Source: Halarcobacter sp. (GTDB lineage: Bacteria > Campylobacterota > Campylobacteria > Campylobacterales > Arcobacteraceae). From it: DNA of 64,000 nucleotides. The stretch lies in contig OY781089.1 of NCBI GenBank assembly GCA_963676565.1, forward strand, positions 960,001 to 1,024,000, given 5' to 3'. A model generated the notes under the pieces. It was not told the DNA's origin, made no database searches, and saw nothing but the letters and a program-made list of their open reading frames with translations. Positions 6,361 through 57,480 of the stretch are shown piece by piece (within the stretch, counting starts at the first letter, position 1; the number at the start of each line of letters is the position of its first letter). The translations under genes and the position numbers were made by a program.

Positions 6361-6376
6361 ACTATTAAACCTTAAG

Positions 6377-6397
6377 GAAGAACAAAAAATGTTCTTC
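6377..6397. terminator. Stem-loop between cynS and the kinase/phosphatase
   Basis: GAAGAACA-N5-TGTTCTTC. Confidence 0.45.
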
Positions 6398-6411
6398 GTT
6401 AAAGATTACTT

Positions 6412-6852
6412 CTACCAAGATTTGTATGGTAAAAATTTTCCATTCATAGTTATAACTACTCTATCACCAGCTTTGTTTTTTTCTTTATCAATATCCATTG
6501 AAAAGTCAATTGCACTCATAATACCATCACCAAATTTTTCACCAATTAGTTCTTTTATAGTATCTCCATAAACACCAATTACCTCATAAAATCTATAGAC
6601 AACTGGATCAGTAGGTATACTCTTCTCCCAAGTTTTATATGGGAACTCTTGTAAAGTTTTTTCAACTTCTTTTCCTAGTTTTAAAACTTTACAAAGTTTT
6701 TTTGCAGGTTCTTTTGTTAGACTGTTTTGTCCTAAACAAGCTGAAGTTAAAAATACAGCTCCTAATTCTACTTTCGAAGCTATCTCTTCCCAAGAAAGAC
6801 CTAAACTTTTTTTTGCAAATATAATCTCTTCTGTCATTTCAATTTTTGTCAT
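6412..6852 (-). CDS. cynS: Cyanate hydratase (cyanase)
   Basis: PTDPVVYRFYE, FGDGIMSAIDF, GKFLPY. Confidence 0.97.
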   Translation of the reverse strand: MTKIEMTEEIIFAKKSLGLSWEEIASKVELGAVFLTSACLGQNSLTKEPAKKLCKVLKLGKEVEKTLQEFPYKTWEKSIPTDPVVYRFYEVIGVYGDTIKELIGEKFGDGIMSAIDFSMDIDKEKNKAGDRVVITMNGKFLPYKSW

Positions 6853-7025
6853 ATTACACTCCTTTAAAAGTGTCCCACTTTATAAAGGGACCGTATTGTT
6901 ATTTAGTCTACTTTTTAGTAGGATTTGTAAAAAATCCTTAAAAGTAGAAAAACCTAAAGAGGCAAAGAATTGCCTTTTTTTAAAATCTAAAAGAGAGGTC
7001 TTAAGACCTCTACCTTTTTACGCTA

Positions 7026-13235: not shown

Positions 13236-13388
13236 TTTTCTATAAAGATGAAAATATATAGACACTCTTTATGATTTATCGATTTAAAAAAGAGACTTTA
13301 AAAGAGAAAGGGCTTAAAAATATATTGATTGAGAAGCAATTTACTAGTAATGTTTTTTTTTGAGTTAGTTCAAGAAAGGTTATAAATT

Positions 13389-41186: not shown

Positions 41187-41206
41187 TATTTATTACTAGT
41201 TAATTT
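41176..41206. terminator. 13-bp perfect inverted repeat spanning the dxs and secretin stop codons
   Basis: AAATTAACTAGTA-N5-TACTAGTTAATTT. Confidence 0.6.
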
Positions 41207-42642
41207 CCATAAAGTATTTTATTTACCCTTTGCTGATGTTTTTCCTCATCTGTTAATTCAACTTTTTCTTTTTTATTTTCTATTTTTTTAGTTGTTTCTG
41301 CAATCTCTTTCTCGTTTTCCATTTCTTCTTGATCTTTCATTTTGTAAAGATTATTCTTTTGTTTACTATAATCTCTATCTTTGATAATGTTCATTTTTTT
41401 CTTTAAGATTTTTTTCTCATCATGGTTCATTGGATCAACTATTTCAGGGGTCATGAAAAATACTAAATCATAGTTCTCATCATTTGTTGATCTACTTGAA
41501 AATAATTGTCCTAATAAAGGTATATCGCCTAAGCCTGGGATTTTTTCTTTATCTTGACTATAATCAGCTTTTAAAAGACCAGCTAAAACAATTGTAGAAC
41601 CATCTTCTATTAATACATTAGTTGTAACTTCATTACCTACTAAACCAGGGATGTCATCAACGGTATTAATATAATCAACATCATCAATTTTTGCCATTGC
41701 CTCAAAATCAATATATTGATTTTCAATAATCTTTTTTGCCTTCATTGAGATATTTAGACCATATTCAATCTCTTTTAATTCAGTTGATGGTACTCCCTCA
41801 GCTGTTGTAGTTGAAGATTTGATGAAAAACTTACCACCTGTATTAAATTTAGCTTCCTGATTCTCTTTCATAATCAAGGTACTTTCATTTACTATTCTAG
41901 CCGCATTGTTTTTTCTTAGGTAATTTAGTGTAAGACCTAAGTTAAAATCAGAACCTAATGTTTGCGCAGCAAGTGTTATTCCACCTGTTAAACTTGTAAT
42001 ATTAGCATTAAAATTACCAGTTAATGTATCATTTGTAGATTTATTACTAAATGTCCAATCATTGATAAGTTGTTCATTGTTATTATTATCTATTTGAACC
42101 ACATAAACTTTCACTCTAACCATTTTAGTTGAGTAATTGTCTTTAATTAAGTCAATTAATTGAGCTTCTGTGTCAATTCCATATTTTTTAAATATTTCAA
42201 TAAGTTTAGATTTTTGTGTTTGATTTTTTACATGTCCTTGTAGTATAACTGTATCATTGATTTGAGAGACTTGAACATTAGGGTAAAGATGATTAATTAG
42301 TTGAATTATATCATTCATATTTTTAACGATATTAAATTTAACTGTAACAACTGAATCATCTTGAAAAGTTACAATTGCACTTTGTTTACCAATTTTTTTC
42401 CCTTTTACTTTTAAGGTTGCTAGGGGGATATCGCTATCTTTTAAAAAATCAGCTTCAATATAATCACTTGAATCAAAATTAATTTTTTTAATTGTTTTAG
42501 TGAATTTAAGAATTTTATAGCCATTTAAATCTACAGTGACAATTTTATTTTCAAAATCTACTTGTTTTACAGCTTTAGTTTCTGATGCATTTAAAGAAAT
42601 GCAAAATAGTAGTAGTAATATAATAAAATTAATTTTTTTCAT
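41200..42642 (-). CDS. Tad secretin (RcpA/CpaC-like)
   Basis: Signal peptide from ATG 42642, BON-like region, secretin motifs DGSTIVLAGL, KIPGLGDIPLLGQLFSS, LVFFMTPEIV. Confidence 0.88.
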   Translation of the reverse strand: MKKINFIILLLLFCISLNASETKAVKQVDFENKIVTVDLNGYKILKFTKTIKKINFDSSDYIEADFLKDSDIPLATLKVKGKKIGKQSAIVTFQDDSVVTVKFNIVKNMNDIIQLINHLYPNVQVSQINDTVILQGHVKNQTQKSKLIEIFKKYGIDTEAQLIDLIKDNYSTKMVRVKVYVVQIDNNNNEQLINDWTFSNKSTNDTLTGNFNANITSLTGGITLAAQTLGSDFNLGLTLNYLRKNNAARIVNESTLIMKENQEAKFNTGGKFFIKSSTTTAEGVPSTELKEIEYGLNISMKAKKIIENQYIDFEAMAKIDDVDYINTVDDIPGLVGNEVTTNVLIEDGSTIVLAGLLKADYSQDKEKIPGLGDIPLLGQLFSSRSTNDENYDLVFFMTPEIVDPMNHDEKKILKKKMNIIKDRDYSKQKNNLYKMKDQEEMENEKEIAETTKKIENKKEKVELTDEEKHQQRVNKILYGN

Positions 42643-42650
42643 CTTCTCTC

Positions 42651-43094
42651 CTAATTTGATAAAGTGATATTTAATGTACATGTTATTGTATTTGAATTAT
42701 TTTCATTAAATACTACTCTTTTACTTACAAGATTATTACCAAAAAACTTATAAGAGTTATTTGTTGTTTGGGTAATAAAAATAACTTGATAGGCTCCATT
42801 TGCATTAAAACCACATATTGTATTTGTATCTGCTGAGACATTGTTTATAGCAGCTACTTTCATTGCATTAATGTTTGCCGTTAAATCAGCACCTATACCA
42901 TTAATTGCTACATTTCTTGAACCATAATCAGATATTGCATCCATATTATCTTTTACTCTAACAATTGTTGCGTAATCTACAACAAAAAAGAATAGGGTAA
43001 CAAAGCCTATAAACATTACCATCCATAAAAGAATGTTTTCTATATATGCTTTTTTAAAGCTTTGTTCTTTTTTTCTGATAGTTTTTTTACACAT
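42651..43094 (-). CDS. TadE/F-like minor pilin (non-canonical)
   Basis: Basic leader KKA, then YIENILLWMVMF hydrophobic helix; Cys pair; lies inside the Tad locus. Confidence 0.6.
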   Translation of the reverse strand: MCKKTIRKKEQSFKKAYIENILLWMVMFIGFVTLFFFVVDYATIVRVKDNMDAISDYGSRNVAINGIGADLTANINAMKVAAINNVSADTNTICGFNANGAYQVIFITQTTNNSYKFFGNNLVSKRVVFNENNSNTITCTLNITLSN

Positions 43095-43096
43095 CC

Positions 43097-44257
43097 TTAT
43101 TTTCTTAACCCTTTATACTCTTTAAATGATATCTCTTTTACATCTTTTTTCTGAATATAAGTTCCATCACAAATAACAAACCAACCTGGATTTATTTTAG
43201 ATAAACCAGTGTGTGCCAATACATAGTTTTTATATATTTTATTATCTATTTTGGCTCTAATAGATGGTAATTTTCTTAGGTATGCTTTATTTGATATTAC
43301 AATTAATAAATTGTCATTTTTTGAACACTCTTTTGTTAAATCATTTTGTAAATTAACAGTTTTTGATTTTTTCAAAGAGGGTTTGTCTGCATATTCAATT
43401 ATTGCAGTTTTTTGTTCAGTATTAATTTTTGGATAATATCTTTTTATTGGATAAGATTTTTTTACATATGTTGGTTTTTTTAGACTTTTTGGTACTTCTT
43501 TTTTAACAATTTTCTTTATCTCTTCTTTTTCATCTTTTTCATCTTTTTTATCTTTTTCAGGTTCTAGTCTTGATTTTATCATCCAAAGCTGACTACCTTT
43601 ATTCCAATCTTCTATTAAAGCTAACATATCTTTTTCTTTAATATCTAAAATTAACTCAGAGGCTCTTACATTTACAATCTCTTCAATTGTTTGTTTTTTT
43701 ACAACTTTTTTTATCTTTTTCTTAAAAATTGCTTTTTCAGAGGGTAAACCATCAGCAAGAAAACCTAATACTCTTATATTTTTAATAACATATTGTACTG
43801 ATACACCTTTTTCATTTGTAACAGATACAATTTTAATTAAATCATTTGGCTCTAATGTAAAATTGGGGTTTCTAAACATTTTGTATTGCATATTGTAACT
43901 ATTGTATTTGAAGTCAATTTTCTCTTGTTTCTTTTCTTCAATTTTTGTTGTTAACTTTTGTTTTAAAAATGCTTCATTTAAGTAAATAGTTTCTTTTGCA
44001 TATTTGTTAACTATTTCTTTTTGAAGTAGTGGTTTAGTTAATACAAATTGTCTTGCAATTGTAGTACTTTTAATATCTTTTTCAGTAATTAATGTACCCT
44101 TTTTAATATCTTTATTTGCAACAAAAATTCTAACTAATCTATTTTGTTCCTCAACCACTTTTTTATTTTCTTGATAAAAATATACTGATACTGCAATTGC
44201 AGACAGTAACATTGAAAGTAGAATTAATATTATTGCTACTTGTTTATTGAATTTCAT
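43097..44257 (-). CDS. CpaB/RcpC-like SAF-domain protein with C-terminal SH3-like domain
   Basis: N-terminal TM, VANKDIKKGTLITEKDI (SAF), IKNIRVL, C-terminal YLRKLPS...GWF. Confidence 0.78.
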   Translation of the reverse strand: MKFNKQVAIILILLSMLLSAIAVSVYFYQENKKVVEEQNRLVRIFVANKDIKKGTLITEKDIKSTTIARQFVLTKPLLQKEIVNKYAKETIYLNEAFLKQKLTTKIEEKKQEKIDFKYNSYNMQYKMFRNPNFTLEPNDLIKIVSVTNEKGVSVQYVIKNIRVLGFLADGLPSEKAIFKKKIKKVVKKQTIEEIVNVRASELILDIKEKDMLALIEDWNKGSQLWMIKSRLEPEKDKKDEKDEKEEIKKIVKKEVPKSLKKPTYVKKSYPIKRYYPKINTEQKTAIIEYADKPSLKKSKTVNLQNDLTKECSKNDNLLIVISNKAYLRKLPSIRAKIDNKIYKNYVLAHTGLSKINPGWFVICDGTYIQKKDVKEISFKEYKGLRK

Positions 44258-44271
44258 ATTTCCCCTTCATT

Positions 44272-45117
44272 TTACATTCCAAATTCTAATTTCCCAGCCA
44301 TTAAAGGAAAGATTATAAAAGCCCCTAGTGATGGAAGTACAAATATAAAAATAACTAACATTAAGTACATATTTAATGTATTTACTTTACCTTTAATTTT
44401 ATAAAACTTTTCTTGTCTCATTTCATCTGACTGTGTAGAAAATATATTTTTTACACCAATTCCAGCTTCTTCACTTAAAATTAAGAAATCAACTATTTTA
44501 CCTACGTCATCGGAATCAACTCTTTTTTTTAGATTTTCATAAGCTTTTTTAGTAGAATAGTTTGTCATTTCATATTCAAGAATTGCTACTTCTTTTAACA
44601 ATTCTTCATCTAATATTCCATGCGCTCTTGTTGAAACTGTAAAAAAAGCATTTTTTAATCCCCCTCCAGCTTCTAATATTACATTGATTAAATCTAAAAA
44701 AACACCTAAATCATTATTTATCTTTTCAACTCTTTCAGATTTTGATATGCTTATATATAGAGGACCTCCAAATAGTAAAAGAACTATTCCAACTGCAATT
44801 CCAATTATTCCTACAAGACTAAGACCAAATAGTATAGGCAAAGCTATTGATACAATTATGCCTATTAGTGCAAATACTAGTTTACCTTCATTGTATTCTT
44901 TTTTTGTAAGTCCAGCTTGAACTAGTTTAAAGTATAGATCTTTAGAGTGGTTTTCTTCTGTACCTTTATTCAACTCTTTTTGTTGATCAACAATACCAAC
45001 TGCATCAAGTTTTGATAATAATACTATTTGCTTTTTTTGACCCTTTGAATCAAATAAATACCAAACTAGTATTCCTAAAATTACTAAAATAATCGGTGAA
45101 AAATAAATTAAATCCAT
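44272..45117 (-). CDS. tadC: TadC-like inner membrane platform protein
   Basis: T2SSF-type FLDLINVILEAGGG...EMRQEK; follows tadB. Confidence 0.8.
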   Translation of the reverse strand: MDLIYFSPIILVILGILVWYLFDSKGQKKQIVLLSKLDAVGIVDQQKELNKGTEENHSKDLYFKLVQAGLTKKEYNEGKLVFALIGIIVSIALPILFGLSLVGIIGIAVGIVLLLFGGPLYISISKSERVEKINNDLGVFLDLINVILEAGGGLKNAFFTVSTRAHGILDEELLKEVAILEYEMTNYSTKKAYENLKKRVDSDDVGKIVDFLILSEEAGIGVKNIFSTQSDEMRQEKFYKIKGKVNTLNMYLMLVIFIFVLPSLGAFIIFPLMAGKLEFGM

Positions 45118-45118
45118 T

Positions 45119-46051
45119 TTATCCCTTAACTTTTGTTAATAAGTTATTTACAAAAATACCAAAAGCTACCCATACAGCAATAAAGAACATTTGTACTTGC
45201 CCCTCACTAGTACCAAAGAAATGTTCATCTAGAACACCATCAAGTGAACTATCCATCATTTTATAAATAAAAATCACTAAAGCAATAATCATATAACTTC
45301 CCACTTTTATTTCTCTAGTTGAAGCTGTGATTTCTTGTTTTATTTCACCTTGGTCATGTAAAGTTTTTCTTAGTTTTTCTAAAGTATTTGAGAACTTACC
45401 ACCTGATTGTCTACCAATTGAGATTGTTAAGTAAAAGATTCTTAATTCTTTAGATTCTACAAGAGTAAACATTTTTTGGAAAGCTTTATCTTCTCCTACA
45501 ATATCTTTTTCAACAAGATATAAAGTAAACACTTCTTTTGCAAATTTAGATCTTGATGTGGCAACAGATTTTTTTAAAGCTTGCTCAAATCCAACACCAC
45601 TTTTCATCATACTAGTTACTTTATCTATTATTCCTTTTAATGCAAAGTTAAATTCTTCTAATCTGTTGTCAATCAATTTTTTTAAAACCAATAAGGGGAA
45701 AAAAGAAAATATTATAGCACTAATAGCAAATACTACAGGGTTTGTAATTACAAAGTTTATAAATATTGCTGATAAGAAACCAAAGGCTACAGAAATTATT
45801 ATAAACACAGTTTCAGAATAAGGGGATGAATAACCTGCATAAGTTAATCTTTTCCCTAACCAATTTCTTTCTTTTTTATTTAATCTTGATCTTTTTTTAC
45901 TACCTTCTAATATTTCATTATTATCTTTTGATAATTTACTAATAATTCTATTTTTTTTATTATATTCTAAAGAAAAGTTATAAATTAAAATACCTATAAG
46001 TACTAATAAAATAGGTATAATAATAATTAAAACTATTGTTAAAATATTCAC
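45119..46051 (-). CDS. tadB: TadB-like inner membrane platform protein
   Basis: MKSGVGFEQAL, IGRQSGGKFSNTL; GTG 46051 chosen because the track start overlaps tadA. Confidence 0.82.
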   Translation of the reverse strand: MNILTIVLIIIIPILLVLIGILIYNFSLEYNKKNRIISKLSKDNNEILEGSKKRSRLNKKERNWLGKRLTYAGYSSPYSETVFIIISVAFGFLSAIFINFVITNPVVFAISAIIFSFFPLLVLKKLIDNRLEEFNFALKGIIDKVTSMMKSGVGFEQALKKSVATSRSKFAKEVFTLYLVEKDIVGEDKAFQKMFTLVESKELRIFYLTISIGRQSGGKFSNTLEKLRKTLHDQGEIKQEITASTREIKVGSYMIIALVIFIYKMMDSSLDGVLDEHFFGTSEGQVQMFFIAVWVAFGIFVNNLLTKVKG

Positions 46052-46055
46052 GTTA

Positions 46056-47660
46056 TTAGTCTCTTTGTATTTTTTGGAAATGTGGCCATTTATGGAAAAT
46101 TTGTGGATCTTGATGTAAAAAAATATCAACAAATTCATCTTTCCATCCACACATTTTATCTGGTAAATCTTTTTCCAATTCATCAATCAACATAGATTTT
46201 GGCATCTCAAACTCTTTATTAAAAATAGATATATCTATATCCACACCAAACATATTCATTTGATTGACTGTTCTTGAAGGTGTCGAGACAACTTCAAATT
46301 TACCTTTTGTTTTGGACATATCACTAGTATCTCTTTTAAATTCAAAAATATTGTTCAATGAGATTACTGAATTGTCTTCAATCCTTCTTTCAACTTCAGA
46401 GATTGTAATTACTTTTCTTGTTCCATCAGGGAACCTTACAAGTTGTAAAATCAAATCAACTGCTGAAACAATTTGAGCTCTAATAAAGTTAATATTTGCA
46501 CTAGGTCTTGCTTCCAAATACATATTTTCAATTCTTACTAATGCTTCTTTTGTATTATCGGCGTGAACTGTTGTCATAGATCCAGGGTGTCCTGTATTCA
46601 TGGCATTTAACATTACAACAATCTCGGCCCCTCTACACTCCCCAACAATAATTCTTCTAGGAGATGATCTAAGAGCTGAACGAAGTAAAAACTCTAATGG
46701 AATTGCACCTTTCCCTTCTTCATTTGCCATTCTTGCTTCATATTGTCTAATTGAGTGACATGGCATTTGAGGTTTCATCTCTTTTGTATCTTCAATTACC
46801 ATTAATTGTTCATTCTCATCAATAAATCTAGTCATAGCATTAAGAAAAGTTGTTTTACCACTTGAAGTACCACCTGAAACAATGATATTACATTTGCCCT
46901 TAGCTACTTTAAGTAAAAAGTATGCCATTTTATAATCCATTTGTCCTGAATCAATCAAAAATTCTAAAAGTAGTGGAAGGTCATTAAACTTTCTTATTGT
47001 TACGCAACTTCCGTCATTTGCTGCGATTGGAGGGATTTGTACTTCAACCCTAGAACCATCTTTTAATTTACTTGACATAATAGGATGTGCTTCATCAATT
47101 TTTCTATTATTTTCAGCAAGCATTTTATCAATTACTTTTCGTAGTTCCTCTTCGCTTCTAAAGGTAAATGGTGTTTGGACAGTTTTACCTTTGTAAATAA
47201 TATCAATATAATCTTTTGTATTTATAATTACATCATTTAAACCATCTTTTGCAATATTGAAAAGTGCAGTTATAGGGCCATATCCAATAACATTGTTTAT
47301 AATAAACTCTTTGATATCTTCTAGAATATTTTTTGGAAGTTTAGATGCTTGTTTAAAAGATAGTATAAATTCTGGTAAAACATCTTCTAGTGAATCACGT
47401 GTGATTTTCTTATCAGACTTTAGATTTATCATAAAGTTATCATTTATTTCATAAGCTAATTCTAAAAGTTTAGCATCTAAATAAATTTTTGGAAAAACAA
47501 GTTCATTATGTTTATTTCTTTTTTTTACTTGCTCAATTTTTTCTTTTGCAATGGAATTTGTACTTGGTTCTTCTACAATAGATTCTTCAGTAGAAAAAGA
47601 TTGTTTCTTTATCTCTTTTTTTTGTTCTTCATCTGCAATTAAGAGTCTTAAGTTTTTCAA
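46056..47660 (-). CDS. tadA: Tad pilus assembly ATPase (TadA/CpaF)
   Basis: GYGPI, GGTSSGKTT, IEDTKE, RIIVGECRG, MNTGHPGSMTTVHA. Confidence 0.95.
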   Translation of the reverse strand: MKNLRLLIADEEQKKEIKKQSFSTEESIVEEPSTNSIAKEKIEQVKKRNKHNELVFPKIYLDAKLLELAYEINDNFMINLKSDKKITRDSLEDVLPEFILSFKQASKLPKNILEDIKEFIINNVIGYGPITALFNIAKDGLNDVIINTKDYIDIIYKGKTVQTPFTFRSEEELRKVIDKMLAENNRKIDEAHPIMSSKLKDGSRVEVQIPPIAANDGSCVTIRKFNDLPLLLEFLIDSGQMDYKMAYFLLKVAKGKCNIIVSGGTSSGKTTFLNAMTRFIDENEQLMVIEDTKEMKPQMPCHSIRQYEARMANEEGKGAIPLEFLLRSALRSSPRRIIVGECRGAEIVVMLNAMNTGHPGSMTTVHADNTKEALVRIENMYLEARPSANINFIRAQIVSAVDLILQLVRFPDGTRKVITISEVERRIEDNSVISLNNIFEFKRDTSDMSKTKGKFEVVSTPSRTVNQMNMFGVDIDISIFNKEFEMPKSMLIDELEKDLPDKMCGWKDEFVDIFLHQDPQIFHKWPHFQKIQRD

Positions 47661-49249
47661 TTTTTATCCTTATTTAAAAAACCAAATAGACTTTTTTGTT
47701 TTTTTATCTTTTGAACTGTATCCCCTATATATTCCTTATCTCTTAAGATACTTTCTAGGTTTGTTACAAAAATAGAATCTGATGAGATACTAGAAGCAAG
47801 TTCACAGTAGTTCCAACATTTACCTAGAGTTTGATAATCATTTGGAATTTTAAGATAATTTATTTTATCTTCTTTCGAACTTGTATTCATAATTGAATCA
47901 AAATCTGAAGAAGAGATTTCATTTAATGAATTAACTCTATTAACTATAAAAGTAACTTTTTCTTTTAATCCAGCTCTTTTCATAAGTGAATAAAATGTTT
48001 TTAGTTTACTAACATGTGGTAGTGTCATTTCTGTTAATACCCAAATCTCATTTACTAAATCATATACTGTACTTTTAAGTGAAGAAGCATCAGCTTCTCC
48101 AGTATCTATGATTATGTAATTAAATTTTTCACTAGCTTTTAGTAAATAATCTAACATTTTTTCTATAAAATTATCTTTTTCAATTAAATCTTTATCAATA
48201 TGCTTTTGAATACCATTAATTGAATAAAAGTTTTCTCGTACCTTTACTAATCCTAGTTCAAGATTTTTCTTAAGATTAAAATCTCCAAAATTAACTAAAT
48301 CGATGATTGTTTCACTAGGGATTGGATTTTGAGATAAAAAAAGATTGCTTATAGCTTTAGTTGTAGATAAATCAACATATAAAACATTTTTGTTTGGATT
48401 GTTTTTTGCAATTAAATCTGCAGCATTCATTGAAACAGTAGTTGATCCAATACCTCCTGATACTCCACTAATAGCAATGATTTTATTATCGTTTTTATTT
48501 TTATTAATAAGTTTATATTTTGTATCTAAGATTATATTTTTGATTTTTTCAGGGGAAAATTCATCAATAGAGATATAGTTTTCAATATTTAGTTTTCCAC
48601 AGGTAAGTGAGAGGTGGTGATCATTTGGGCCAACCACTATTACAAATTCATTAAAAGTTCTTAAAATATGCTCATCATCATTTATAAGTTCATTATTTTG
48701 CACTGTATAAATTATAATGTTTTTAGAATTTTTTAAATTTAGTTTATCTGAAACTTTTGCTATATCATGAATTACACTAATATCAGCGTTTAGTAAAATA
48801 TCTAAATTTGTTTCTAACTTATTAGCAAATTTAACTGTATTCTTATCTGTAACTATGAAAATATTTAATGGTGTATTTTGAGATAAAAGATCTTTTTCTA
48901 TTTCAAATATCTTTCTTAAAGCGATTTTTGATTTTTTTAGAAGCTCTCTTAAAACAGACCTATACCAAATTCTTTTGTTAAAAGTAATTTTTCCAAAAAT
49001 TACATCACCATCTTTTAGGATAATAGAATATTTATTATTTATAAAATTGATATCATCATCGATTATGTCATATCCATCAATAGTAAAACCATATACAAAA
49101 TTATTGTATTTAAAATCATATTTCATAAATGTTAGTTTTTGAATATTTGAGATTAGTACAAAAAGTTGTAGTATTTCTATTACATTTTCTCTTCTAATCT
49201 CAAGAGCACCTTGTATATTTGAATATTCTTGATACTGTTTATAATCCAT
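47657..49249 (-). CDS. TadZ/CpaE-like MinD/ParA-type protein with long N-terminal extension
   Basis: Deviant Walker A SGVSGGIGSTT, YVDL, YIIIDTG, IVNR; lies upstream of tadA. Confidence 0.78.
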   Translation of the reverse strand: MDYKQYQEYSNIQGALEIRRENVIEILQLFVLISNIQKLTFMKYDFKYNNFVYGFTIDGYDIIDDDINFINNKYSIILKDGDVIFGKITFNKRIWYRSVLRELLKKSKIALRKIFEIEKDLLSQNTPLNIFIVTDKNTVKFANKLETNLDILLNADISVIHDIAKVSDKLNLKNSKNIIIYTVQNNELINDDEHILRTFNEFVIVVGPNDHHLSLTCGKLNIENYISIDEFSPEKIKNIILDTKYKLINKNKNDNKIIAISGVSGGIGSTTVSMNAADLIAKNNPNKNVLYVDLSTTKAISNLFLSQNPIPSETIIDLVNFGDFNLKKNLELGLVKVRENFYSINGIQKHIDKDLIEKDNFIEKMLDYLLKASEKFNYIIIDTGEADASSLKSTVYDLVNEIWVLTEMTLPHVSKLKTFYSLMKRAGLKEKVTFIVNRVNSLNEISSSDFDSIMNTSSKEDKINYLKIPNDYQTLGKCWNYCELASSISSDSIFVTNLESILRDKEYIGDTVQKIKKQKSLFGFLNKDKN

Positions 49250-49265
49250 TAATTTAAATCCTTTA

Positions 49266-51659
49266 CTATTGTTTAACTATATTAATTTCATCTATTGCAA
49301 CCCATTCATCATTCCAACTTGTATTAGGTCTAAAAGTGATTTTTAAGTTACCACTACTATCTGTAGTTCCAGAAAAATTTTTAGGAGTCCAATATCCATT
49401 TGTTTCATAGAATCCATAAGAGTAAGTATTATTCAAATAAACTTCTAATTTTTCATTACTTTCCCAACTAGTTGGTGTTGCATAGTTTAAAGATATTGAA
49501 ACATCAACATTTTTACATCCATTTCCAAAGTTATATGTTTTATAACCATAGTCATCTCTTTCGATTACATAATAGGAATTATATCTATATCCCCCTGACC
49601 AGTATTCTGAGTTAGAAGAGAAATCATCAGTTTCATTTATTGTACATTCAACATTTGCAATTATGTTTAATATAAATGAGGTATTAGTAGAATCTGTACC
49701 ATCTGTTGCTATTATATTTACTATAACTGGTGAATAGTGTTGAGTATTATCAGGAATAGTTGTACTTAATACAGCATTTGTTGTAGTATTATAGCCTAAT
49801 GAAGCAGCTGTAACAGTATAAGTAACATCATCTCCATCAGAATCAGTGCAATAAGTATCTAAATTTAAACTAAAGTTTTCAGTTTCAGTTGCCGTTTGTG
49901 TTGGAATTGTTTGACATTGAGGCGCGTTATTATTTATATTTTCTGTAACATTTATTGAAAATGATGGCAATGAAACTGAAGTAAAACCATCTGATACAGA
50001 GATTACTATACTTGTATAATTTCCAACTTGAGAATTATTTGGGGCACCTGATAATTGTCCTGTATTTGTATCAAAATTTGCCCATAAAGGTTTGTTTGAA
50101 ATTGAAAATGTTAAATTATCTCCATCTGGGTCAGAAGCAACAGGTACAAAAGAATAAATACTTCCAGCTTGTATTGTTCTCATTGGATTTCCACTAATTA
50201 CTGGTGCTTGATTAATGTTATTAACTGTAATTGTACATGTTTGAATATTGCTTGAACCTTCATTATCTCTAGCAATTATAGTAATAATATCATCACCATA
50301 AAAATCTGTATTTGGTGTATATGTAATTGAATCAGTACCAACTAAAACTGAACCATTAATTGCAGAACCTGTAATATCAGATATCCACTTATCATCAGAT
50401 GAAGTAAATGAAAAAGTTGATGTTGTATTTTCATCAATTGGAGCAGGGCAACTTAAAACTAAAGTTGGTTGAGCATTACCATTACAAGTTAAATTTATAG
50501 ACCCATCACTTAAAACACTATAAGTGTTTAATTGGTTTGGAATTACAACTCTAGTAGTGTTTAAAAAGATGTCATTAAAGTCTTCATCTCCACCACCATT
50601 TAAATCTTCCATTGCATATCTATACTCATCATTTATATCATGAATACAATCATTAACACCCTCTTTATAACTTGTTGCAGGATCATTTGTAATATCAGGA
50701 ATATTATTGAATTGATTATTATCATAATTAACTACATTACAGTGATCTATAAAATCATCATAAGTCTGTGTTCCTTGACCTGCAAAAGCACCATATCCTC
50801 CAACAAATTCATTATATGTAGTCCAAACACTTTCAGGGATAATTTGTATATGAGGATAACCATCTCCATTTAATTCATTATGCTCAAAATAAACATTGGC
50901 ATTTTCTCTTTTTACACCATTAATATTAACAGTTGGATTTCCAGATACATTATCAAAACAATATGTTCCATTACCATTTTCTCCAAATGTCATAGTATCA
51001 CCAACATTGGGTCTTGCATATCCATTTTTAAAAATATTATAACCATCTGAGATTAAAAAAACGTGAGTTGGTGGACTAGTTATTGCTGTTCCATTATTTA
51101 GAAGCGTTCCAACAAGATTATGATCATCTGAGTTTGCTAAAATTATTCTTGTGTTTGTAACACAGTTGTTTCTATCTAAATCATAAAGTCCCACCATATT
51201 TGTAAATCCAGCACTTTCTCCACCATAAGTTATTGTAACACTTCTTGGGGTATTAACTGCTTCTGTCCAAGAAAAAGGACCTACTGTAAAATCATTTTTA
51301 TCAAAAAATCTATACCAAAAGGTATCATAGGGATGTTGTGCAATAGATGCGGTAACTTGATCAGGCTCACCATCTCCATCACTATCCCACCATCTGTAAG
51401 ATACCAGTTGGTTTGATAAGGTTTCATTTCCTAATTTTTGTTGATTTAAAATTGAAGTAGTTATATTTTGTGCAGTACACATATCAATATTTGATTCATA
51501 ATATCTTGCCATAGCATTTGCAGAGCTTTTTACTAGAGCTTTCAAATCATAAATATAATTTCTTGTTGAGGTTTCATCATTTACTGTTGCAACAAAGGTT
51601 ACTATTCCCATAAGAAGTAGGAAGCCTAAAAAAAGTTGGTCTAATACTGCTTTTTTCAA
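49266..51659 (-). CDS. Large pilin-like adhesin (TadG-like N-terminus, DUF4114-like domain, Ig/cadherin-like repeats)
   Basis: KKA + hydrophobic helix; ESAGFTNMVGLY and EDLNGGGDEDFND; YTPNTDFYGDD; NQAPVISG...DPDGDNLTF...TGQLSGAP. Confidence 0.75.
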   Translation of the reverse strand: MKKAVLDQLFLGFLLLMGIVTFVATVNDETSTRNYIYDLKALVKSSANAMARYYESNIDMCTAQNITTSILNQQKLGNETLSNQLVSYRWWDSDGDGEPDQVTASIAQHPYDTFWYRFFDKNDFTVGPFSWTEAVNTPRSVTITYGGESAGFTNMVGLYDLDRNNCVTNTRIILANSDDHNLVGTLLNNGTAITSPPTHVFLISDGYNIFKNGYARPNVGDTMTFGENGNGTYCFDNVSGNPTVNINGVKRENANVYFEHNELNGDGYPHIQIIPESVWTTYNEFVGGYGAFAGQGTQTYDDFIDHCNVVNYDNNQFNNIPDITNDPATSYKEGVNDCIHDINDEYRYAMEDLNGGGDEDFNDIFLNTTRVVIPNQLNTYSVLSDGSINLTCNGNAQPTLVLSCPAPIDENTTSTFSFTSSDDKWISDITGSAINGSVLVGTDSITYTPNTDFYGDDIITIIARDNEGSSNIQTCTITVNNINQAPVISGNPMRTIQAGSIYSFVPVASDPDGDNLTFSISNKPLWANFDTNTGQLSGAPNNSQVGNYTSIVISVSDGFTSVSLPSFSINVTENINNNAPQCQTIPTQTATETENFSLNLDTYCTDSDGDDVTYTVTAASLGYNTTTNAVLSTTIPDNTQHYSPVIVNIIATDGTDSTNTSFILNIIANVECTINETDDFSSNSEYWSGGYRYNSYYVIERDDYGYKTYNFGNGCKNVDVSISLNYATPTSWESNEKLEVYLNNTYSYGFYETNGYWTPKNFSGTTDSSGNLKITFRPNTSWNDEWVAIDEINIVKQ

Positions 51660-51672
51660 AAAATCCCCTTTT

Positions 51673-52107
51673 TTAAATTTGATAAATTCCTATTTTATAG
51701 AATATTTCTGTTAAACAAACAGCTAAAAAAATAGCTGGAGCCATAGGCGCAACCTTGCGTCTTTTATATTTTTGAATAAAAATTAAAAATAGTGCTTGAC
51801 AAAGACCTGTTAAAATTAAAAATAATGGAAATAATAAAGGTTCTAAATATATAGCCACAACCATAATATATTTGATATCCCCACCACCTAAAATTTGTTT
51901 AGGCATTATTAATAATATTATAACAAAAAATATTAAAATTACAAGTGAAATAATGAATGATATGTAGTTTAGTTTATCTTCAAGCAAGCCAAAGATTAGT
52001 AGAAATAAAAATAAGGTAGCAAGTGTGATATTTGGTATTTTAAATTTAGTACAATCAGTATATGAAAGTAGTAATGAAAATATGTAAAATGATAATGTAA
52101 AAATCAT
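51673..52107 (-). CDS. Prepilin peptidase A24 (TadV/CpaA-like)
   Basis: YTD...IPN and LGGGDIK aspartates, P-M-AP; no methyltransferase domain. Confidence 0.88.
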   Translation of the reverse strand: MIFTLSFYIFSLLLSYTDCTKFKIPNITLATLFLFLLIFGLLEDKLNYISFIISLVILIFFVIILLIMPKQILGGGDIKYIMVVAIYLEPLLFPLFLILTGLCQALFLIFIQKYKRRKVAPMAPAIFLAVCLTEIFYKIGIYQI

Positions 52108-52111
52108 TTAA

Positions 52112-52297
52112 TTAGGTGTTAGTAATTGAAATTATTCTTGTATTAGATTCATTTTTTAAAGTTTCTTTATGCTGTGAAAACCAAGATTCTATGGCAATTA
52201 ATCCTACAATGCCAGCTATTACAAGAAGTAAAGTAACTAGGATTTTATCCATTGCACCTTTTTCTGATTTTAATCTTCTTTTTAAAAATTCTAACAT
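52112..52297 (-). CDS. Flp-like major pilin (non-canonical motif)
   Basis: 61 aa; leader ...LKSEKG, then a ~20-aa hydrophobic helix; first gene of the Tad run; GGAG RBS. Confidence 0.78.
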   Translation of the reverse strand: MLEFLKRRLKSEKGAMDKILVTLLLVIAGIVGLIAIESWFSQHKETLKNESNTRIISITNT

Positions 52298-52325
52298 TTA
52301 AATACTCCAACAGTGAATTTAAAAA

Positions 52326-52334
52326 ATTATAGCA
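52326..52334 (-). promoter_or_regulatory. Extended -10 sigma70 promoter upstream of the pilin
   Basis: TGCTATAAT on the minus strand, about 30 bp upstream of the ATG. Confidence 0.6.
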
Positions 52335-52342
52335 CAAAAAAG

Positions 52343-53824
52343 CTAAAGTTTTCTAAATATAAGCTTAGAGTTCATTATTTTATAAAATTTATACCCTGAA
52401 TCTCTAATTGATTTATCAGAAAATTTTAAGTTTGATGTCTTATTAGTATCGATTATAAAGTAATCTGGAGAATTTTTCTTTAAAAAACTATTAAAATCTT
52501 CTATAGTTATTTTTTCATTATTACTTAATAAATCAAAATAAATCTTTTTATCTTTTTGATTGTAAGTTACCCAACCTAAAGAACAACTTGGAATATAACT
52601 TCCTGTTGGATTTAAATAAGTTGACATATAACCATATGTACCAATAGAAGAGAAAAGTATCCTTTTCCCTTTATATTCATTTTCTTTTATAAATTGCATA
52701 TCTAAAAAAGTTTTTTCAAGTAAATTTGTCTCTTTTTTATAATCATCAAATGTTTTTATAAAAAATAATATTGTAATTATAATAGTTATAAAAAAATAGA
52801 ATTTTTTTGGAAAATCTAAAAAAAATGTTTTTTCTTTGAGATAGTTTTTAATTCTATCAATATAATTATTAAAGCCATTTTTTTCTATGAATTTAAAAGA
52901 AGAATAAAATAAATGAATTAAAAAGATATAAAATAGAGGTTCTAACAAATTTAAGAATCTTTGCTGAATAATAAATAATGGTATAAATAAAATTACATAT
53001 TTTAGTAAAATTTCTTTAGGTTTTAATACATAATAAATTGTTAAAGAAAAAAATACTAATAATAGCAGTAAATTTGTAGATCCAAGACTATTCTTTAACT
53101 CTAAAGGGATAATAAAAGGTTTACTTTCTCCAACACTATATGATTGTGTTAAAAAGTCATTATTTAATACAAATTGAATAATTCTTAAATAACCATCCAA
53201 ATCAAAATAAGAATAAAAAAGAAATCCAAATAATAAAGAAACTACAATTAAAATAGTTTTGTAGTAATCTTTTAATATTATAGTTACATAAGCAATAAAA
53301 CCAAAGTAAAACCAAAAAACATAATAAAATGGTGCGTAAAGTAAAGGGATTATAAATAAAATTTTTTTATTTCTTAATGTGAGAAAATATAATATAAAAA
53401 GACCACTTAATAAATCAGGTCTTAAGAAAAAATACCTAAAACTAAGTAAAGGAAGACCAATTGAAAAAATTATTGTATAAATTGTAGAAACTTCAGTAAA
53501 TCTCTTGAATGCTAAATAGTACCAAAAAGATAAAAGAGTATATACTATTGAGTTAACAAAAATTGGTACAGTAGATTTGTCCATAAAGTTTAATAAAAAT
53601 GATAAAAGATAATGCCAGGAAAACCAAGGATCAAAATCATTATATAATGAAAAAGGGTACAGTCTCTCCCATGAAACTATTTTATCTGGATAAAATGCCA
53701 TAGCTAAATGTCTCCATCCGTCATCTGGCATGGTTAATCCAAGGTTTTTAATAATCAATATTGAGCAAATTAAAAAAAGAAAAAATACTACAAAATTAAA
53801 TTTTAGTGCTTTTGGTTGATTCAT
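52343..53824 (-). CDS. Polytopic membrane protein, GT-C-like glycosyltransferase
   Basis: PDD motif after TM1 (PDDGWRH), about 11 TMs, soluble C-terminal domain. Confidence 0.6.
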
Positions 53825-55223
53825 GATATTCTTTTTCTGTGTTTATATTCCATAAGGTATCTTTGTTTTTATTTTTGATTAAACAATCTACTGCTTCAAA
53901 ACTTGTCATCATAGAATGATCCATATTATTATATCTATGTTGACCATTTCTTCCAATACAAAATAAATTATCAAAGTTATTGAGATAGTTCTTTATTTCA
54001 TCAAATCTGTTATATGAACCAAAATAAGAAGGGTAGGCTTTTTTAACTTTTAATTGAACACTATCTAGCACCTCCTCTTTATTGATTAATTCAAGCTTTT
54101 CTAATTCATTAATTGCAAAGTTTTTAAAATCTTCTTCAGTCATTTCCCAAAGTTCATCATTTTCATTACAAAAATATTCTAATCCTATCCATGTTGTATT
54201 CTTATCTTTAACTAAAAAAGGTGACCAATTATTGAAAATTTGTAGTCTTCCTATTTTTACATCTGGCTCTTGAATATAAATCCAGTTATCTTTTAACTTA
54301 TTTAATTTACTTTTATTTAGTAGTATTCCAACTGTTATAAAATCTCTATACTCTAAGTTATCTGCAAGTTCTTTAATCTCATAAGATACATTATATAAAG
54401 TATTAATTAAATCTTTTATTGGCATTGAAGAAAAAATATAATCAAATTCATATGTGTTTTTTTTGGTTTTTAATTTAGTGATTTTAGAATTATCTGTTTC
54501 TAAAGCAATTACTTTTTCATTAAATATTATATTTCCACCATTGGATTTAATTTTATCTGCTACAGACTCCCAAAGTTGGCCTGGTCCATATTTTGGATAC
54601 TTGAATTGTTCAATTAAAGAAGTTTCAATATTTTTTGAATTAAGATTCCCAAAACTTTTCTTAAATATGTGAATTAAAACAGATCTAATTGATAATCCTT
54701 TAACTCTTTGATAGCCAAATAATGCAGCTATTTTATTGCAAGGAACGCCCCATACTTTTTCTGTATAGTCTCTAAAAAAAGTAGCATATAATTGAAATCC
54801 AAACCTATTTATAAAAAAATCTTCTAAAGTTTTTTCTTCCCTTTTAAGAATTATTGCTTTTAGATATGAAAGACCAATTTTGATAAATCTAGTAAAGCCT
54901 ATATTTTTTATTGTATTTTTGTTTAATGTAACGGGATAATCGTAAAATTTTCTTTCATATAAAATTCTTGATTTTCTATCTCGTATTAAAAACTCTTCAT
55001 CTAAAACTTCATTCCACCATTTATTAACTTTTTTTATTTTACTAAAAAATCTATGACCTCCAATATCAATTCTATTACCATTATGATAATAAGTCTTAGA
55101 TATACCACCAATAAACTCTGATTCTTCTAAAATTGTAACATTATATTTATTCATTTTTAGTAGTTCATAAGCAGCAGTTAAACCAGCAGGTCCAGCACCT
55201 ATAATTATAATTTTTTCTTTCAT
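53796..55223 (-). CDS. FAD-dependent oxidoreductase, UDP-galactopyranose-mutase-like
   Basis: [46 protein letters not shown]. Confidence 0.75.
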
Positions 55224-55329
55224 AAAGACCTTATAGTTTTATTTTCTTTTAGATAAAATAAGTGATTATACTTAAGGAATTATTATAGAATTATTTAATC
55301 GTACAGAAATAAAAAAGATAACTAATATA

Positions 55330-56586
55330 TTGTTCTTTTTTCTTATTATCACAATTTTTTTATTTCATCCTGTACCAACTATTTTAGACTATAAAATAAC
55401 AAGTTTTAAATTTGTCCCTTATAGTGAGATTATTTTTATATTGATAATAATATTAAGTTTTTTTTCTTTAGAAAAAAAAATATTTTTTGTAAATATTTTA
55501 AGGGATAAGATTTCAAGAGTTTTTATGTTGATGTTTTTAATATTTCTCTTTGGAATAACATGGTCAACAGATAAAACAAATAGTATAATAATTTTTAAAT
55601 CAGTTAGTTATTTACTAATAGTTCCAATTTTAATAGTAACTTTGAAGAAATCAACAGCCAAATATTTACTTTTCTTTTTATTATTAATGACTATTGTTTC
55701 AGCAAGTATGACAAACATTTTGTATTTTTCTAATTTGAGTTTAGATTTGGAAATAAAATTAACGAATGTTTCCCCTTTTATAAATAATATGTATTATGGA
55801 ACAATTTTATCTCTCTCTTTTATTTATTTTTTTATCAATTTTAATTTTAAAGATAAACTATTTATTATTTTAATCAATCTATTTTCAATGTTTGCTATTT
55901 TTACTTCAATGTCAATTATTTGTAATAGAAGTAGTTTAATAGGAATGTTAGTTGCCATTTCTATTTATTTATGGTTTAGAAATAATACTTATTTTTTATT
56001 AAAAAGGTTAGGGGTTATTTTAGTTACTGTTTTATCATTATTAATCTATAGCAATTTAATAAATCCTGGCTGTGGATTAAAGTTTTTCAATATGGAGAAA
56101 TCACTTTCTAAAGAGATAAGTGGGAAAAGAACAGGTACAAGTTTAGGTTGCAGATTAAATTATATAGAAAATTCAATAGAATTGATTAAAGAGAATCCTA
56201 TTATAGGGGTAGGAACTGGGGATAGCTTATATTCCATGAAAAATCATTTTGGAGAAGATGTCTATTTGGATATTGTTACTAAACCTTGTTATTTAGGGCC
56301 ACATAATCAAATCTTTTATTTTGATAATCATAATATGTACTTAACAATGTTAATGCTTTTTGGTCCTTTAGGATTAATTGTTTTTATTTATTTTTTCTAT
56401 GAGATTTTTAGAGTAGGTGTGATATTAAATTCATGGGAATTAAAGTCAATTATTATAATTGTTTCATTAGCCTCAATTCCTATAACACTATTTTATACAA
56501 GTAGTAATTTTGTATTATTTTTTTCTTTTTATGTAAGTCTTTTATATATTGTAAAAAAAGATTCATTTACCAATGAGAATTCTTAA
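55330..56586 (+). CDS. O-antigen ligase / O-oligosaccharyltransferase family (Wzy_C)
   Basis: About 12 TMs; periplasmic loop with R...NPIIGVGTG...HNMYL. The true start may lie upstream. Confidence 0.82.
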   Translation: MFFFLIITIFLFHPVPTILDYKITSFKFVPYSEIIFILIIILSFFSLEKKIFFVNILRDKISRVFMLMFLIFLFGITWSTDKTNSIIIFKSVSYLLIVPILIVTLKKSTAKYLLFFLLLMTIVSASMTNILYFSNLSLDLEIKLTNVSPFINNMYYGTILSLSFIYFFINFNFKDKLFIILINLFSMFAIFTSMSIICNRSSLIGMLVAISIYLWFRNNTYFLLKRLGVILVTVLSLLIYSNLINPGCGLKFFNMEKSLSKEISGKRTGTSLGCRLNYIENSIELIKENPIIGVGTGDSLYSMKNHFGEDVYLDIVTKPCYLGPHNQIFYFDNHNMYLTMLMLFGPLGLIVFIYFFYEIFRVGVILNSWELKSIIIIVSLASIPITLFYTSSNFVLFFSFYVSLLYIVKKDSFTNENS

Positions 56587-56944
56587 ATACTTTTTTGTTG
56601 GTGGAACTGCCGCAATAGTTGATGTAGGTTTATTTTTAATCTTTACTAAACTCTTTGATTACAATTATTTAGCTGTAGGTTTTTTTTCATTTATCCTTGC
56701 AACTTTTGTTAATTATTATTTGAGTATCAGATTTGTTTTTGAAAGTGGTAAAAGATTTAAAAAATCTCATGAAATTATTTTAATTTATATAGTGAGTGGA
56801 ACAAGCCTAGTTTTAAATCTAGTATTATTATATTTAATCCATGAAAAGCTGAATATAGAAGTAGGGATATCTAAAATTATAGTAACAGGTATTTTATTTT
56901 TTTATAATTATTTAATAAGAAGATTTTTTGTTTTTCATAAATGA
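56573..56944 (+). CDS. GtrA-family flippase
   Basis: KYFFVGGTAAIVD, NYYLSIRFVF, YNYLIRRFFVF. Confidence 0.9.
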   Translation: MRILKYFFVGGTAAIVDVGLFLIFTKLFDYNYLAVGFFSFILATFVNYYLSIRFVFESGKRFKKSHEIILIYIVSGTSLVLNLVLLYLIHEKLNIEVGISKIIVTGILFFYNYLIRRFFVFHK

Positions 56945-57480
56945 TTTTTCAATTTCTCAACACAAAGTCCCATAGCAGTACTTTCATACCCCGTAACACT
57001 TTTAATATATGGTTTACAAAAGCCTTCCACCATAATAGCTCCTGCTTTTCCAAAGCATTCACCAGATTTGATATATTCCACCATATGGTTTTTATCAAAT
57101 TTTTCAAATTCATAAGTTGTAATAGATATATCAATAACTTCTTTTTTTTGTGACTTAAAAATCATACAAGTTATAACAGAGGTTTCACTTCCACTTTGAA
57201 GTTCAAGCATTCTTCTTGCATCATCTTCATCTTTTGCTTTTCTTAAAAGTTCACCTTGTGAAGTTACAACAGAATCAGCAACTAACAATGGCATATCATC
57301 GCAACCATATTTTTTATATAGTTCATTATATTTTCCTAAAGTTGCTTGATAAACAAAAGATTTAGGATTGTTTGTTGTAATTGAATCTTCATCAAAATCT
57401 CCACCATTTTGTATAAAATCAATATTGTGAGTTCTTAAAATAAGTGCTCTAGTAGAAGAGTTTGAACCAAGTCTAATCAA
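56935..57480 (-). CDS. maf: Maf nucleotide pyrophosphatase
   Basis: LGSNSSTR, VADSVV, GKAGA, AMGL. Confidence 0.92.
   Translation of the reverse strand: MIRLGSNSSTRALILRTHNIDFIQNGGDFDEDSITTNNPKSFVYQATLGKYNELYKKYGCDDMPLLVADSVVTSQGELLRKAKDEDDARRMLELQSGSETSVITCMIFKSQKKEVIDISITTYEFEKFDKNHMVEYIKSGECFGKAGAIMVEGFCKPYIKSVTGYESTAMGLCVEKLKNHL

Follow-up and report, generated by a model that had tools for sequence, protein, structure and literature searches.

A probable Tad-type pilus locus with a non-Flp pilin and a pilin-linked sugar cassette in Halarcobacter sp.

The DNA considered here is a 64-kb stretch of Halarcobacter sp. (positions 960,001-1,024,000 of contig OY781089.1; host genome 3.34 Mb, one contig), referred to in its full length as the window. 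Between dxs and maf it carries a locus that is best explained as belonging to a distinct Campylobacterales lineage of Tad/type IVc pilus systems, with a working machine and an associated modification cassette. The probability of this explanation as a whole is put at roughly 0.7, and its components differ in strength: it is very probable that the machine is of the Tad type, the adhesive role predicted for the pilus from its sequences is likely, and the proposal that the pilus proteins are the acceptor of the cassette's sugar stands at even odds. The account draws on gene content, homology, folds, conservation and linkage, each functional step being read from homology. The locus is a family-level variant of the Tad system. 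Its pilin is short and of a non-Flp kind, its genes stand in a rearranged order, it encodes a TadG-like candidate adhesin, and a variable modification cassette is linked to the gene for the pilin.

Organization of the locus and its assembly machine

Twelve closely packed genes occupy the minus strand from 41200 to 55223 and two divergent genes the plus strand from 55330 to 56944, flanked by dxs (39384-41186, plus strand) and maf (56935-57480, minus strand). In the order of transcription the twelve encode a flavoprotein resembling UDP-galactopyranose mutase (UGM), a polytopic protein of 493 amino acids (aa), a 61-aa pilin, a 144-aa A24 peptidase, a 797-aa protein with immunoglobulin (Ig)/cadherin domains, a TadZ-like protein, TadA, TadB, TadC, a CpaB-like protein, a 147-aa TadE-like protein and a secretin; the plus-strand pair encodes a Wzy_C protein and GtrA. 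Calls of open reading frames (ORFs) combined with Pfam and NCBIfam searches showed all 14 to be uninterrupted within 41200-56944, in agreement with the original prediction, which had named these genes between dxs and maf, and the gaps between genes nowhere exceed ~110 nucleotides (nt). Because the genes are packed and leave no spare ORF, TadD, RcpB and TadF are absent from the locus, as had been claimed for the first two; no TadD search was made in the rest of the genome. The order pilin-peptidase-(TadG)-TadZ-TadA-TadB-TadC-CpaB-TadE-secretin is the same in 17/17 related loci compared, which come from nine genera, and the arrangement is therefore not due to chance. It differs from the canonical flp-tadV-rcpCAB-tadZABCDEFG, a departure already recognized in the original prediction. 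Two other Campylobacterota families, which provide a control from within the phylum, contain Tad loci (~41% TadA identity) in which the canonical order is found together with pilins reading G/VTAIEYALIAVAIS, the canonical G/VTAIEY type of Flp, while a third family (53-59% TadA identity) displays the same rearranged order, with a related G/MSGVL pilin encoded after the secretin.

The assembly ATPase supports the assignment to Tad. TadA (534 aa; 46056-47660, minus strand; T2SSE 149 bits), which is present as a single copy in the genome, matched Caulobacter CpaF best among Protein Data Bank (PDB) sequences with 232.8 bits, followed by archaeal GspE2 (116 bits), FlaI (112.6 bits) and VirB11 (91.8 bits). 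Among NCBIfam models the TadA-family TIGR03819 scores best, with 222 bits against a cut-off of 373, and the protein is 70-92% identical across 13 genera. A conjugative VirB11/TrbB-type ATPase, which had been named beforehand as the finding that would overturn the Tad assignment, was rejected because the score against CpaF far exceeds that against VirB11. TadB (310 aa; 45119-46051, minus strand; PF00482 34.7 bits) and TadC (44272-45117, minus strand; PF00482 30.1 bits) are adjacent inner-membrane platform proteins with a single T2SSF domain each. The cited part of Denise et al. (10.1101/576694) presents a split platform of this kind as characteristic of Tad and Epd systems, which there also have a TadZ-like ATPase in common. 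TadC is 55-78% identical across the 17 loci; TadB homologues span 308-313 aa, and as judged from the sequence the TadB start is most likely the GTG at 46051, 4 nt past the TadA stop, rather than position 46186.

The remaining machine genes encode putative counterparts of Tad components. The A24 prepilin peptidase (144 aa; 51673-52107, minus strand; PF01478 40.9 bits) resembles TadV/CpaA and possesses no methyltransferase domain; its first Asp motif is kept in each of the 16 homologues with a called ORF long enough to include it, and GGGDIKY is invariant in 18/18. The TadZ-like protein (530 aa; 47657-49249, minus strand) belongs to the ParA/MinD family (AAA_31 30.5 bits, cut-off 27) and has an N-terminal extension of ~170 aa, homologues from the second family with the rearranged order aligning only from residue 173. 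As read from the translation, its Walker A motif is the atypical GVSGGIGSTT, from which both lysines are missing. The CpaB/RcpC-like periplasmic protein (386 aa; 43097-44257, minus strand; SAF 23.3 bits) contains a linker rich in K and E and, at its C-terminus, an additional conserved domain of ~110 aa; within the family it is conserved along its full length and in its position. The TadE-like pseudopilin (147 aa; 42651-43094, minus strand; PF13400 16.8 bits, under the cut-off) is likewise fixed in position and displays the conserved N-terminal motif KKA-x-[IV]-[DE]-[QN]-I-L-L-W. The secretin (41200-42681, minus strand; Pfam Secretin 120 bits), which would form the outer-membrane channel, has a signal peptide and a K/E-rich C-terminal tail; it matched PilQ (75.8 bits) above RcpA (58.1 bits) in the PDB, and its N-terminal domains have no assignment. 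It is the final gene of the operon in all 17 loci that extend that far, and on reading the translation its true start is probably the second Met, at 42642.

Comparison with the characterized Tad/type IVc systems (Caulobacter Cpa, Aggregatibacter tad and Pseudomonas Rcp/Tad) reveals both a common core and clear departures. The CpaF-like ATPase, the separate TadB and TadC, the TadZ-like ParA protein, the short A24 peptidase without a methyltransferase domain and the length of the pilin predicted after processing (~47 aa) are held in common; the CpaB/RcpC-like SAF protein, the secretin and the TadE/TadG-like pseudopilins are candidate counterparts. The identification of the locus as Tad-type in the original prediction is supported. 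Unlike those systems, the locus encodes a pilin without Glu5 and Tyr6, follows the rearranged order, lacks TadD, RcpB and TadF, has two pseudopilin genes rather than the three of the TadE/TadF/TadG set, and encodes TadZ and CpaB proteins with extra domains. No account of the locus was found in the literature on pili of Arcobacter/Halarcobacter, Arcobacteraceae and Epsilonproteobacteria, supplementary tables not being covered, in line with the original view that no characterized Tad system is known in Campylobacterota; the nearest mention, in the cited part of PMC10470745, is of a TAD pilus in a Sulfurospirillum epibiont genome.

Several results weigh against so straightforward an assignment. 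Flp_Fap (PF04964) matched none of 18/18 pilins at E values up to 10. The TadZ-like protein matched ParA, MinD and FleN structures weakly (E 0.016-0.059), and the TadZ label follows from the AAA_31 score and the position before tadA. The CpaB-like protein scored 27.9 bits with TIGR03177, under the cut-off of 71, and had no sequence match in the PDB. Among homologues of the TadE-like protein, PF13400 was weak and under its cut-off in 5/13, and PF07811 was likewise weak in 2/13.

The short pilin and the giant pseudopilin

The gene for the pilin (52112-52297, minus strand) encodes a 61-aa precursor with a basic class III leader ending in K-G, followed by a hydrophobic helix. Cleavage is predicted after Gly14, yielding a 47-aa mature pilin that starts A-M-D-K-I-L and consequently has neither Glu5 nor Tyr6. 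In the 18 sequences aligned, G14, A15 and D17 are invariant, such that an Asp at position 3 stands in the place of Glu5/Tyr6, while the length and leader are Flp-like. The cited part of Wang et al. (PMC10710030) describes Glu5 as absolutely conserved among the type IV pilins of bacteria, and Tyr6 as conserved in every tad pilin. The pilin is, on its sequence, not a canonical Flp, a feature that the original prediction had not remarked on.

This property extends to its relatives. When 1.84 billion representative proteins were searched with the pilin profile, this returned 109 relatives at E <= 0.001, and the pattern G-xxxx-EY was present in 0/109; those that could be classed by motif have either an acidic residue at +3 or are of the G/MSGVL type, without an N-terminal acidic residue. 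A pattern scan of species-representative genomes identified 47 pilin loci, 46 of them in Campylobacterota, with record titles of Halarcobacter, Aliarcobacter, Poseidonibacter and Arcobacter and several metagenome-assembled genomes (MAGs); the remaining one, from a Chloroflexia MAG, matched weakly and over 17 residues. Against the PDB the pilin profile produced insignificant matches only, the best of which (E 0.00079) was to a designed protein. The occurrence of a non-Flp pilin alongside a recognizable Tad machine in two Campylobacterales families offers a natural exception through which the Glu5/Tyr6 rule becomes structurally testable.

Archaeal Epd-like and adhesion pili resemble the present system in their short pilins, in a class III leader with a [KR]-G site and in that Glu5 is not obligatory. 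The pilin profile scored E 0.031 against an archaeal adhesion filament core and E 0.53 against Iho670, neither of which is significant. Unlike the archaeal systems, the locus encodes an ATPase that is closer to bacterial CpaF, and it includes a secretin and a CpaB-like protein.

Extra pilin-like genes were observed in some loci. Tandem pairs of pilin genes are present in several Arcobacteraceae loci (L023, L032, L036, L066 and L097), and a Poseidonibacter-titled locus (L080, 8001-8153) has an extra pilin-like copy after the secretin, beside dxs. In two loci of the second family with the rearranged order (L057, 502-684; L058, 17347-17535) a pilin-like ORF after the secretin is the only one that passed the small-ORF filter.

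The 797-aa protein (49266-51659, minus strand), in which Big_9, He_PIG and Cadherin_4 domains were detected, is a putative TadG-like giant pseudopilin and candidate adhesin. Its N-terminal 118 aa matched the TadE-like family in hhalign with a probability of 96.9% (E 1.8e-10), and the two have the motif KKA-x-[IV]-[DE]-Q-[IL]-L in common; this N-terminus is a paralogue of the TadE-like protein. The original prediction had called the gene an adhesin and remarked on its early position; the pseudopilin N-terminus had escaped notice. In an AlphaFold2 model with a predicted local distance difference test (pLDDT) score of 76, a helix of 56 residues (2-57) leads into a small β-domain, the middle of the protein is poorly predicted, and β-domains fill residues 400-797, comprising an Ig/cadherin-like portion (~400-670) and a confident C-terminal β-sandwich. 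Three Ig/cadherin-like repeats were recognized, and Foldseek searches with the model returned cadherin and Ig arrays. Across the family the N-terminal module is kept and the rest varies: the closest relatives have proteins of ~800 aa, whereas those elsewhere measure ~350 aa. One locus (L031) lacks the gene, and no homologue was found in four others (L082, L085, L087 and L088). We infer that the protein is a TadG-like priming or tip subunit with an exchangeable binding part.

The architecture of this protein bears on the use to which the filament is put. Tad pili are major organelles of adhesion and colonization, and the cadherin/Ig-like repeats that the locus of this genus mounts on a pseudopilin-like N-terminus fit such a role. 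That the filament serves mainly in DNA uptake, secretion or retraction is improbable: the genome contains one other T2SSE-type match, a weak one, which would be in keeping with such a function, but no ComEA/ComEC-like genes or genes for secreted substrates are present at the locus.

An assembly route for an adhesive fibre can be proposed from these assignments. The 61-aa prepilin would enter the inner membrane, where the 144-aa A24 aspartyl peptidase would cut it after Gly14, and the CpaF-type TadA would drive the TadB/TadC platform to polymerize the 47-aa helical pilin at a site set by the TadZ-like ParA/MinD protein. The CpaB-like protein would bridge platform and secretin, and the fibre would exit through the latter. 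The TadE-like and 797-aa TadG-like pseudopilins would prime the fibre, the latter probably residing at its tip or base, with the cadherin/Ig stalk and terminal β-sandwich presented for adhesion.

A putative sugar cassette beside the pilin gene

Immediately upstream of the pilin gene lies the gene for the 493-aa polytopic protein (52343-53824, minus strand), which had no Pfam, NCBIfam or PDB sequence match. Its 28 homologues are all unnamed, and in the Atlas it falls into unnamed clusters only, with PMT_2/STT3 as a distant lead. Its AlphaFold2 model (pLDDT 86.6; predicted template modelling score 0.86) was more informative. Foldseek ranks 1-19 (E <= 0.001) were all STT3, PglB or AglB, followed by DPY19, ALG9, AftA and ArnT. 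VIA-align gave Z scores of 14.6 for STT3, 13.7 for PglB, 13.5 for ALG12, 12.2 for ArnT and 11.9 for AftA, the top rows lying within ~2 Z of each other, and the top 50 VIA entries (Z 14.6 to 7.3) were GT-C enzymes or GT-C-like subunits. Since the model matches GT-C folds in both searches, the predicted structure identifies the protein as a GT-C enzyme, that is, a membrane glycosyltransferase (GT). The DD pair formed by D34 and D35 is nearly invariant in 24 sequences.

Three further genes complete the cassette. The UGM-like flavoprotein (475 aa; 53796-55223, minus strand; NF005546 701 bits), whose gene overlaps that of the GT-C enzyme by 29 nt, aligned over its full length with long-form UGM (E 4.9e-25); it scored 32.8 bits with the bacterial equivalog TIGR00031, the cut-off of which is 303.75, and its best model, NF005546, is unnamed. 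The flavoprotein homologue in the MAG locus L108 (5576-6974) matched as two pieces that overlap, pointing to a frameshift or to faulty assembly. On the opposite strand, the Wzy_C-family protein (418 aa; 55330-56586, plus strand; PF04932 52.4 bits, cut-off 31.7) is a polytopic membrane protein containing the domain of O-antigen ligases and PglL/TfpO O-oligosaccharyltransferases. The genome contains three Wzy_C genes, of which this one is specific to the species; no orthologue was found in 24 other genomes of the genus, four of which contain paralogues of 25-28% identity only. The GtrA-family small membrane protein (123 aa; 56573-56944, plus strand; PF04138 73.4 bits) has counterparts that again adjoin the GT-C gene in related loci. 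A Pfam scan detected no GT2 at the locus, whereas sister loci carry a full set of GtrA, GT2 and GT-C.

The association between cassette and pilus was assessed across the family. A GT-C homologue is present in 28 Arcobacteraceae genomes, and 27/28 also encode a TadA orthologue, compared with 60/184 overall. The two genes lie on the same contig within 6 kb of each other in 20/28 genomes, the GT-C gene being always at the pilin end, and on different contigs of fragmented assemblies in 6/28. This linkage, proposed in the original prediction as a glycosylation module joined to the locus, persists with three different outer flanks (maf, htpG and a gene for malic enzyme). The genes upstream of the pilin were also surveyed in 39 loci from named records in which 1.3 kb or more of upstream sequence is available; these loci overlap the genomes of the preceding count and thus do not provide independent numbers. 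A GT-C module with GT2 and GtrA was found in 10 of these loci, one with the flavoprotein and GtrA in five, and a Wzy_C gene directly upstream in two; maf occupied the position in nine and other core genes in 13.

Four GT-C modules include a sulfatase-family membrane enzyme. Sulfatase-family enzymes include the phosphoethanolamine/phosphoform transferases that modify Neisseria pilins, and for this reason phosphoform modification of the pilus is a lead. A membrane protein of ~585 aa with PF00884 was seen with GT-C/GtrA in L022 (15089-16840), L024 (14758-16515), L095, L096 and L107. In two loci (L034, 5125-6828; L103, 6057-7757) a 567-aa ORF with no Pfam match lies between the GT-C and pilin genes, co-oriented with the pilin.

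Two well-characterized arrangements resemble the cassette. In Pseudomonas aeruginosa, TfpW is a GT-C enzyme with a required DDX motif, is encoded beside pilA and needs a GtrA-like protein (as given in the cited part of 10.1101/2020.04.19.049825). As with tfpW (GT-C) and tfpO (Wzy_C), a gene for a GT-C protein with DD(x) or for a Wzy_C protein here adjoins that for the major pilin, a GtrA-like partner is present, the cassette varies between strains or species, and a furanose sugar pathway is implied. TfpW is a protein of 646 aa with a periplasmic TPR domain that acts with a type IVa pilin, compared with 493 aa, no TPR found, a Tad locus and a predicted activity here, and the sugar-pathway enzyme is UGM-like rather than the DprE1/DprE2 of Pseudomonas. 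The second arrangement is the Gtr module of Shigella and Salmonella phages, in which GtrA, GtrB and GtrC form a three-component system for O-antigen glucosylation. A GtrA-family protein and a GT-C-type transferase are likewise found here, and sister loci add a ~310-aa GT2 of the size of GtrB. The locus differs from a Gtr module in its UGM-like flavoprotein, in that no GtrB-type GT2 was found, and in being a pilus locus instead of a prophage.

By analogy with TfpW/TfpO, the UGM-like flavoprotein, the GT-C enzyme, GtrA and the Wzy_C protein most likely would build a lipid-linked sugar, perhaps a furanose, and attach it, on the periplasmic side, to either the pilin or the giant pseudopilin. A number of observations tell against this step. 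No GtrB-type GT2 that would load the lipid carrier was detected in the genome when the ~310-aa GT2 of sister loci was used as the query (E <= 1e-10), and 22/39 surveyed loci have no such cassette beside the pilin gene. In one genome (G032) the GT-C gene is truly unlinked to Tad, and another (G011) has the GT-C gene but no TadA orthologue; in both it still adjoins the flavoprotein and GtrA genes, amid unrelated genes. The Ser/Thr fraction of the pilin tail is 0.22 in loci with GT-C, 0.24 in those next to maf and 0.29 in others, and tail composition was discarded as a predictor of the linked cassette because it did not differ. For the Caulobacter Tad pilus, the cited part of PMC10710030 describes no glycan density. 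The earlier suggestion of a possibly glycosylated pilus is thus upheld as regards linkage of the module, and modification of the pilus itself is a conjecture, the trio of genes occurring also without Tad in G011.

In an alternative explanation the machine is real but the cassette, as a serotype-conversion module of the Gtr type, modifies lipopolysaccharide (LPS)/lipooligosaccharide, capsule or another envelope glycan. Its place next to the pilin gene would then simply reflect two sets of variable surface genes sharing one recombination-prone spot. This alternative falls short of even odds. The placement of flavoprotein, GtrA and GT-C genes among unrelated metabolic genes in G011, and away from Tad in G032, is as it predicts, as are the classic GtrA, GT2 and GT-C set in sister loci and the lack of Ser/Thr enrichment of pilin tails where a cassette is present. 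The G+C content of the cassette (0.22-0.26), which is lower than that of the tad core (0.25-0.30, near that of its surroundings), is typical for swapped surface-glycan genes. Such an explanation does not readily account for the presence of Tad in 27/28 genomes with GT-C, for the invariable location of the 20 closely linked GT-C genes at the pilin end, or for the survival of the linkage across different outer flanks. Furthermore, GT-C, Wzy_C and sulfatase-family enzymes, which are unrelated and act in the periplasm, gather at the same pilin-proximal position, and other LPS genes were not found nearby.

Tentatively, and with the odds somewhat against so general a proposal, the Campylobacterales Tad lineage whose pilin lacks Glu5/Tyr6 may decorate its fibre or giant tip pseudopilin by means of interchangeable pilin-side cassettes. 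The variants would comprise GT-C with UGM and GtrA, GT-C with GT2 and GtrA, Wzy_C, and sulfatase-family enzymes. To our knowledge no glycosylated Tad pilus has been described, and this would be the first if the proposal is true. The swapping-in of periplasmic cassettes at the pilin gene suggests that Tad pili can undergo post-translational modification, as type IVa pili do. Glycosylation of type IVa pilins guards against pilus-specific phages, according to the cited part of 10.1101/150227. If modification of the Tad pilus is real, the locus would represent a type IVc counterpart of the tfpO/tfpW pilin islands of Pseudomonas, perhaps maintained under pressure from phages or grazers.

Distribution, history and surroundings

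TadA orthologues (best E <= 1e-124) are present in 60/184 Arcobacteraceae genomes, representing 13/22 genera, and in 18/24 other genomes of the genus from which the window derives; nine further genomes contain distant ATPases only. The locus is thus not universal in the family, consistent with its original description as accessory. Related loci are found in records titled Halarcobacter, Aliarcobacter, Poseidonibacter and Arcobacter. Arcobacteraceae frequently occur on surfaces and together with animals, and the patchiness of the locus may account in part for differences in attachment between species.

The genomic context points to an old locus. Loci titled Halarcobacter, Aliarcobacter and Poseidonibacter again have dxs and/or maf as flanks, and other tad loci adjoin genes for DAHP synthase, htpG, nosZ or a GGDEF-EAL protein. 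In two genomes of the same genus (G089 and G091) dxs and maf are direct neighbours, representing empty sites, and in a third (G085; L050, G085:C1:359195-369000, at ~1798-2418) only the pilin and A24 peptidase genes lie between them. This remnant is a deletion scar of a tad locus and, together with the empty sites, indicates loss. In the TadA tree the genus is divided between two clades with supports of 99/99 and 99/98, one of which groups with three other genera; this split reflects either transfer within the family or old paralogy with differential loss, and suggests some within-family transfer. A single recent acquisition explains this less well than a locus that is old in the family and has undergone repeated loss and some exchange. 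The earlier notion of acquisition as a block is hence not the simplest reading, given the dxs-maf site common to three named genera and the empty or vestigial sites, although its element of transfer finds some backing in the TadA tree.

Repeated loss raises the question of whether the locus in the window is itself a decaying relic from which pili are no longer formed. The empty sites and the pilin-peptidase remnant would be in keeping with decay, as would one relative (G005; L028, G005:C1:1144458-1162041) in which DDE transposase genes are located by the pilin gene and also separate tadB from tadC (5761-7053 and 13216-14598), probably disrupting the tad locus of that genome. Data on expression speak neither for nor against transcription of the locus: three oligo-dT RNA runs yielded 2-3 partly fitting reads each, and one metatranscriptome contained short contig pieces of 92-99% identity, which cannot show transcription. 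Against decay, the 12 co-oriented genes are intact and closely packed, TadA is highly conserved across its 13 genera and the catalytic motifs of the peptidase are invariant. A relic is accordingly highly improbable, and a functional pilus machine is the preferred view.

The surroundings contain few further features. No tRNA and no Rfam family were detected within the 64-kb window, no transposase or other mobile-element family was found among the 20 window genes scanned (37191-59780), and dxs had no match among plasmids. Promoter-like sites in the region numbered 107 against a shuffled expectation of 119.8, and terminator-like sites two against 2.9, so neither is in excess. The intergenic stretch ahead of the pilin start (52298-52342, minus strand) contains an extended -10-like TG-n-TATAAT and a GGAG; with regional sites not above the shuffled expectation, this promoter-like sequence is only a lead. 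Beside maf, at 57571-58854 on the plus strand, a 427-aa ORF with no Pfam or NCBIfam match has counterparts of 58-69% identity that also lie beside maf in several genera. Finally, 79-85% of the words sampled from the locus were present in several sequencing runs that share one coded species label (organism B), so that samples recorded under the name of another organism may contain a near-identical bacterium.

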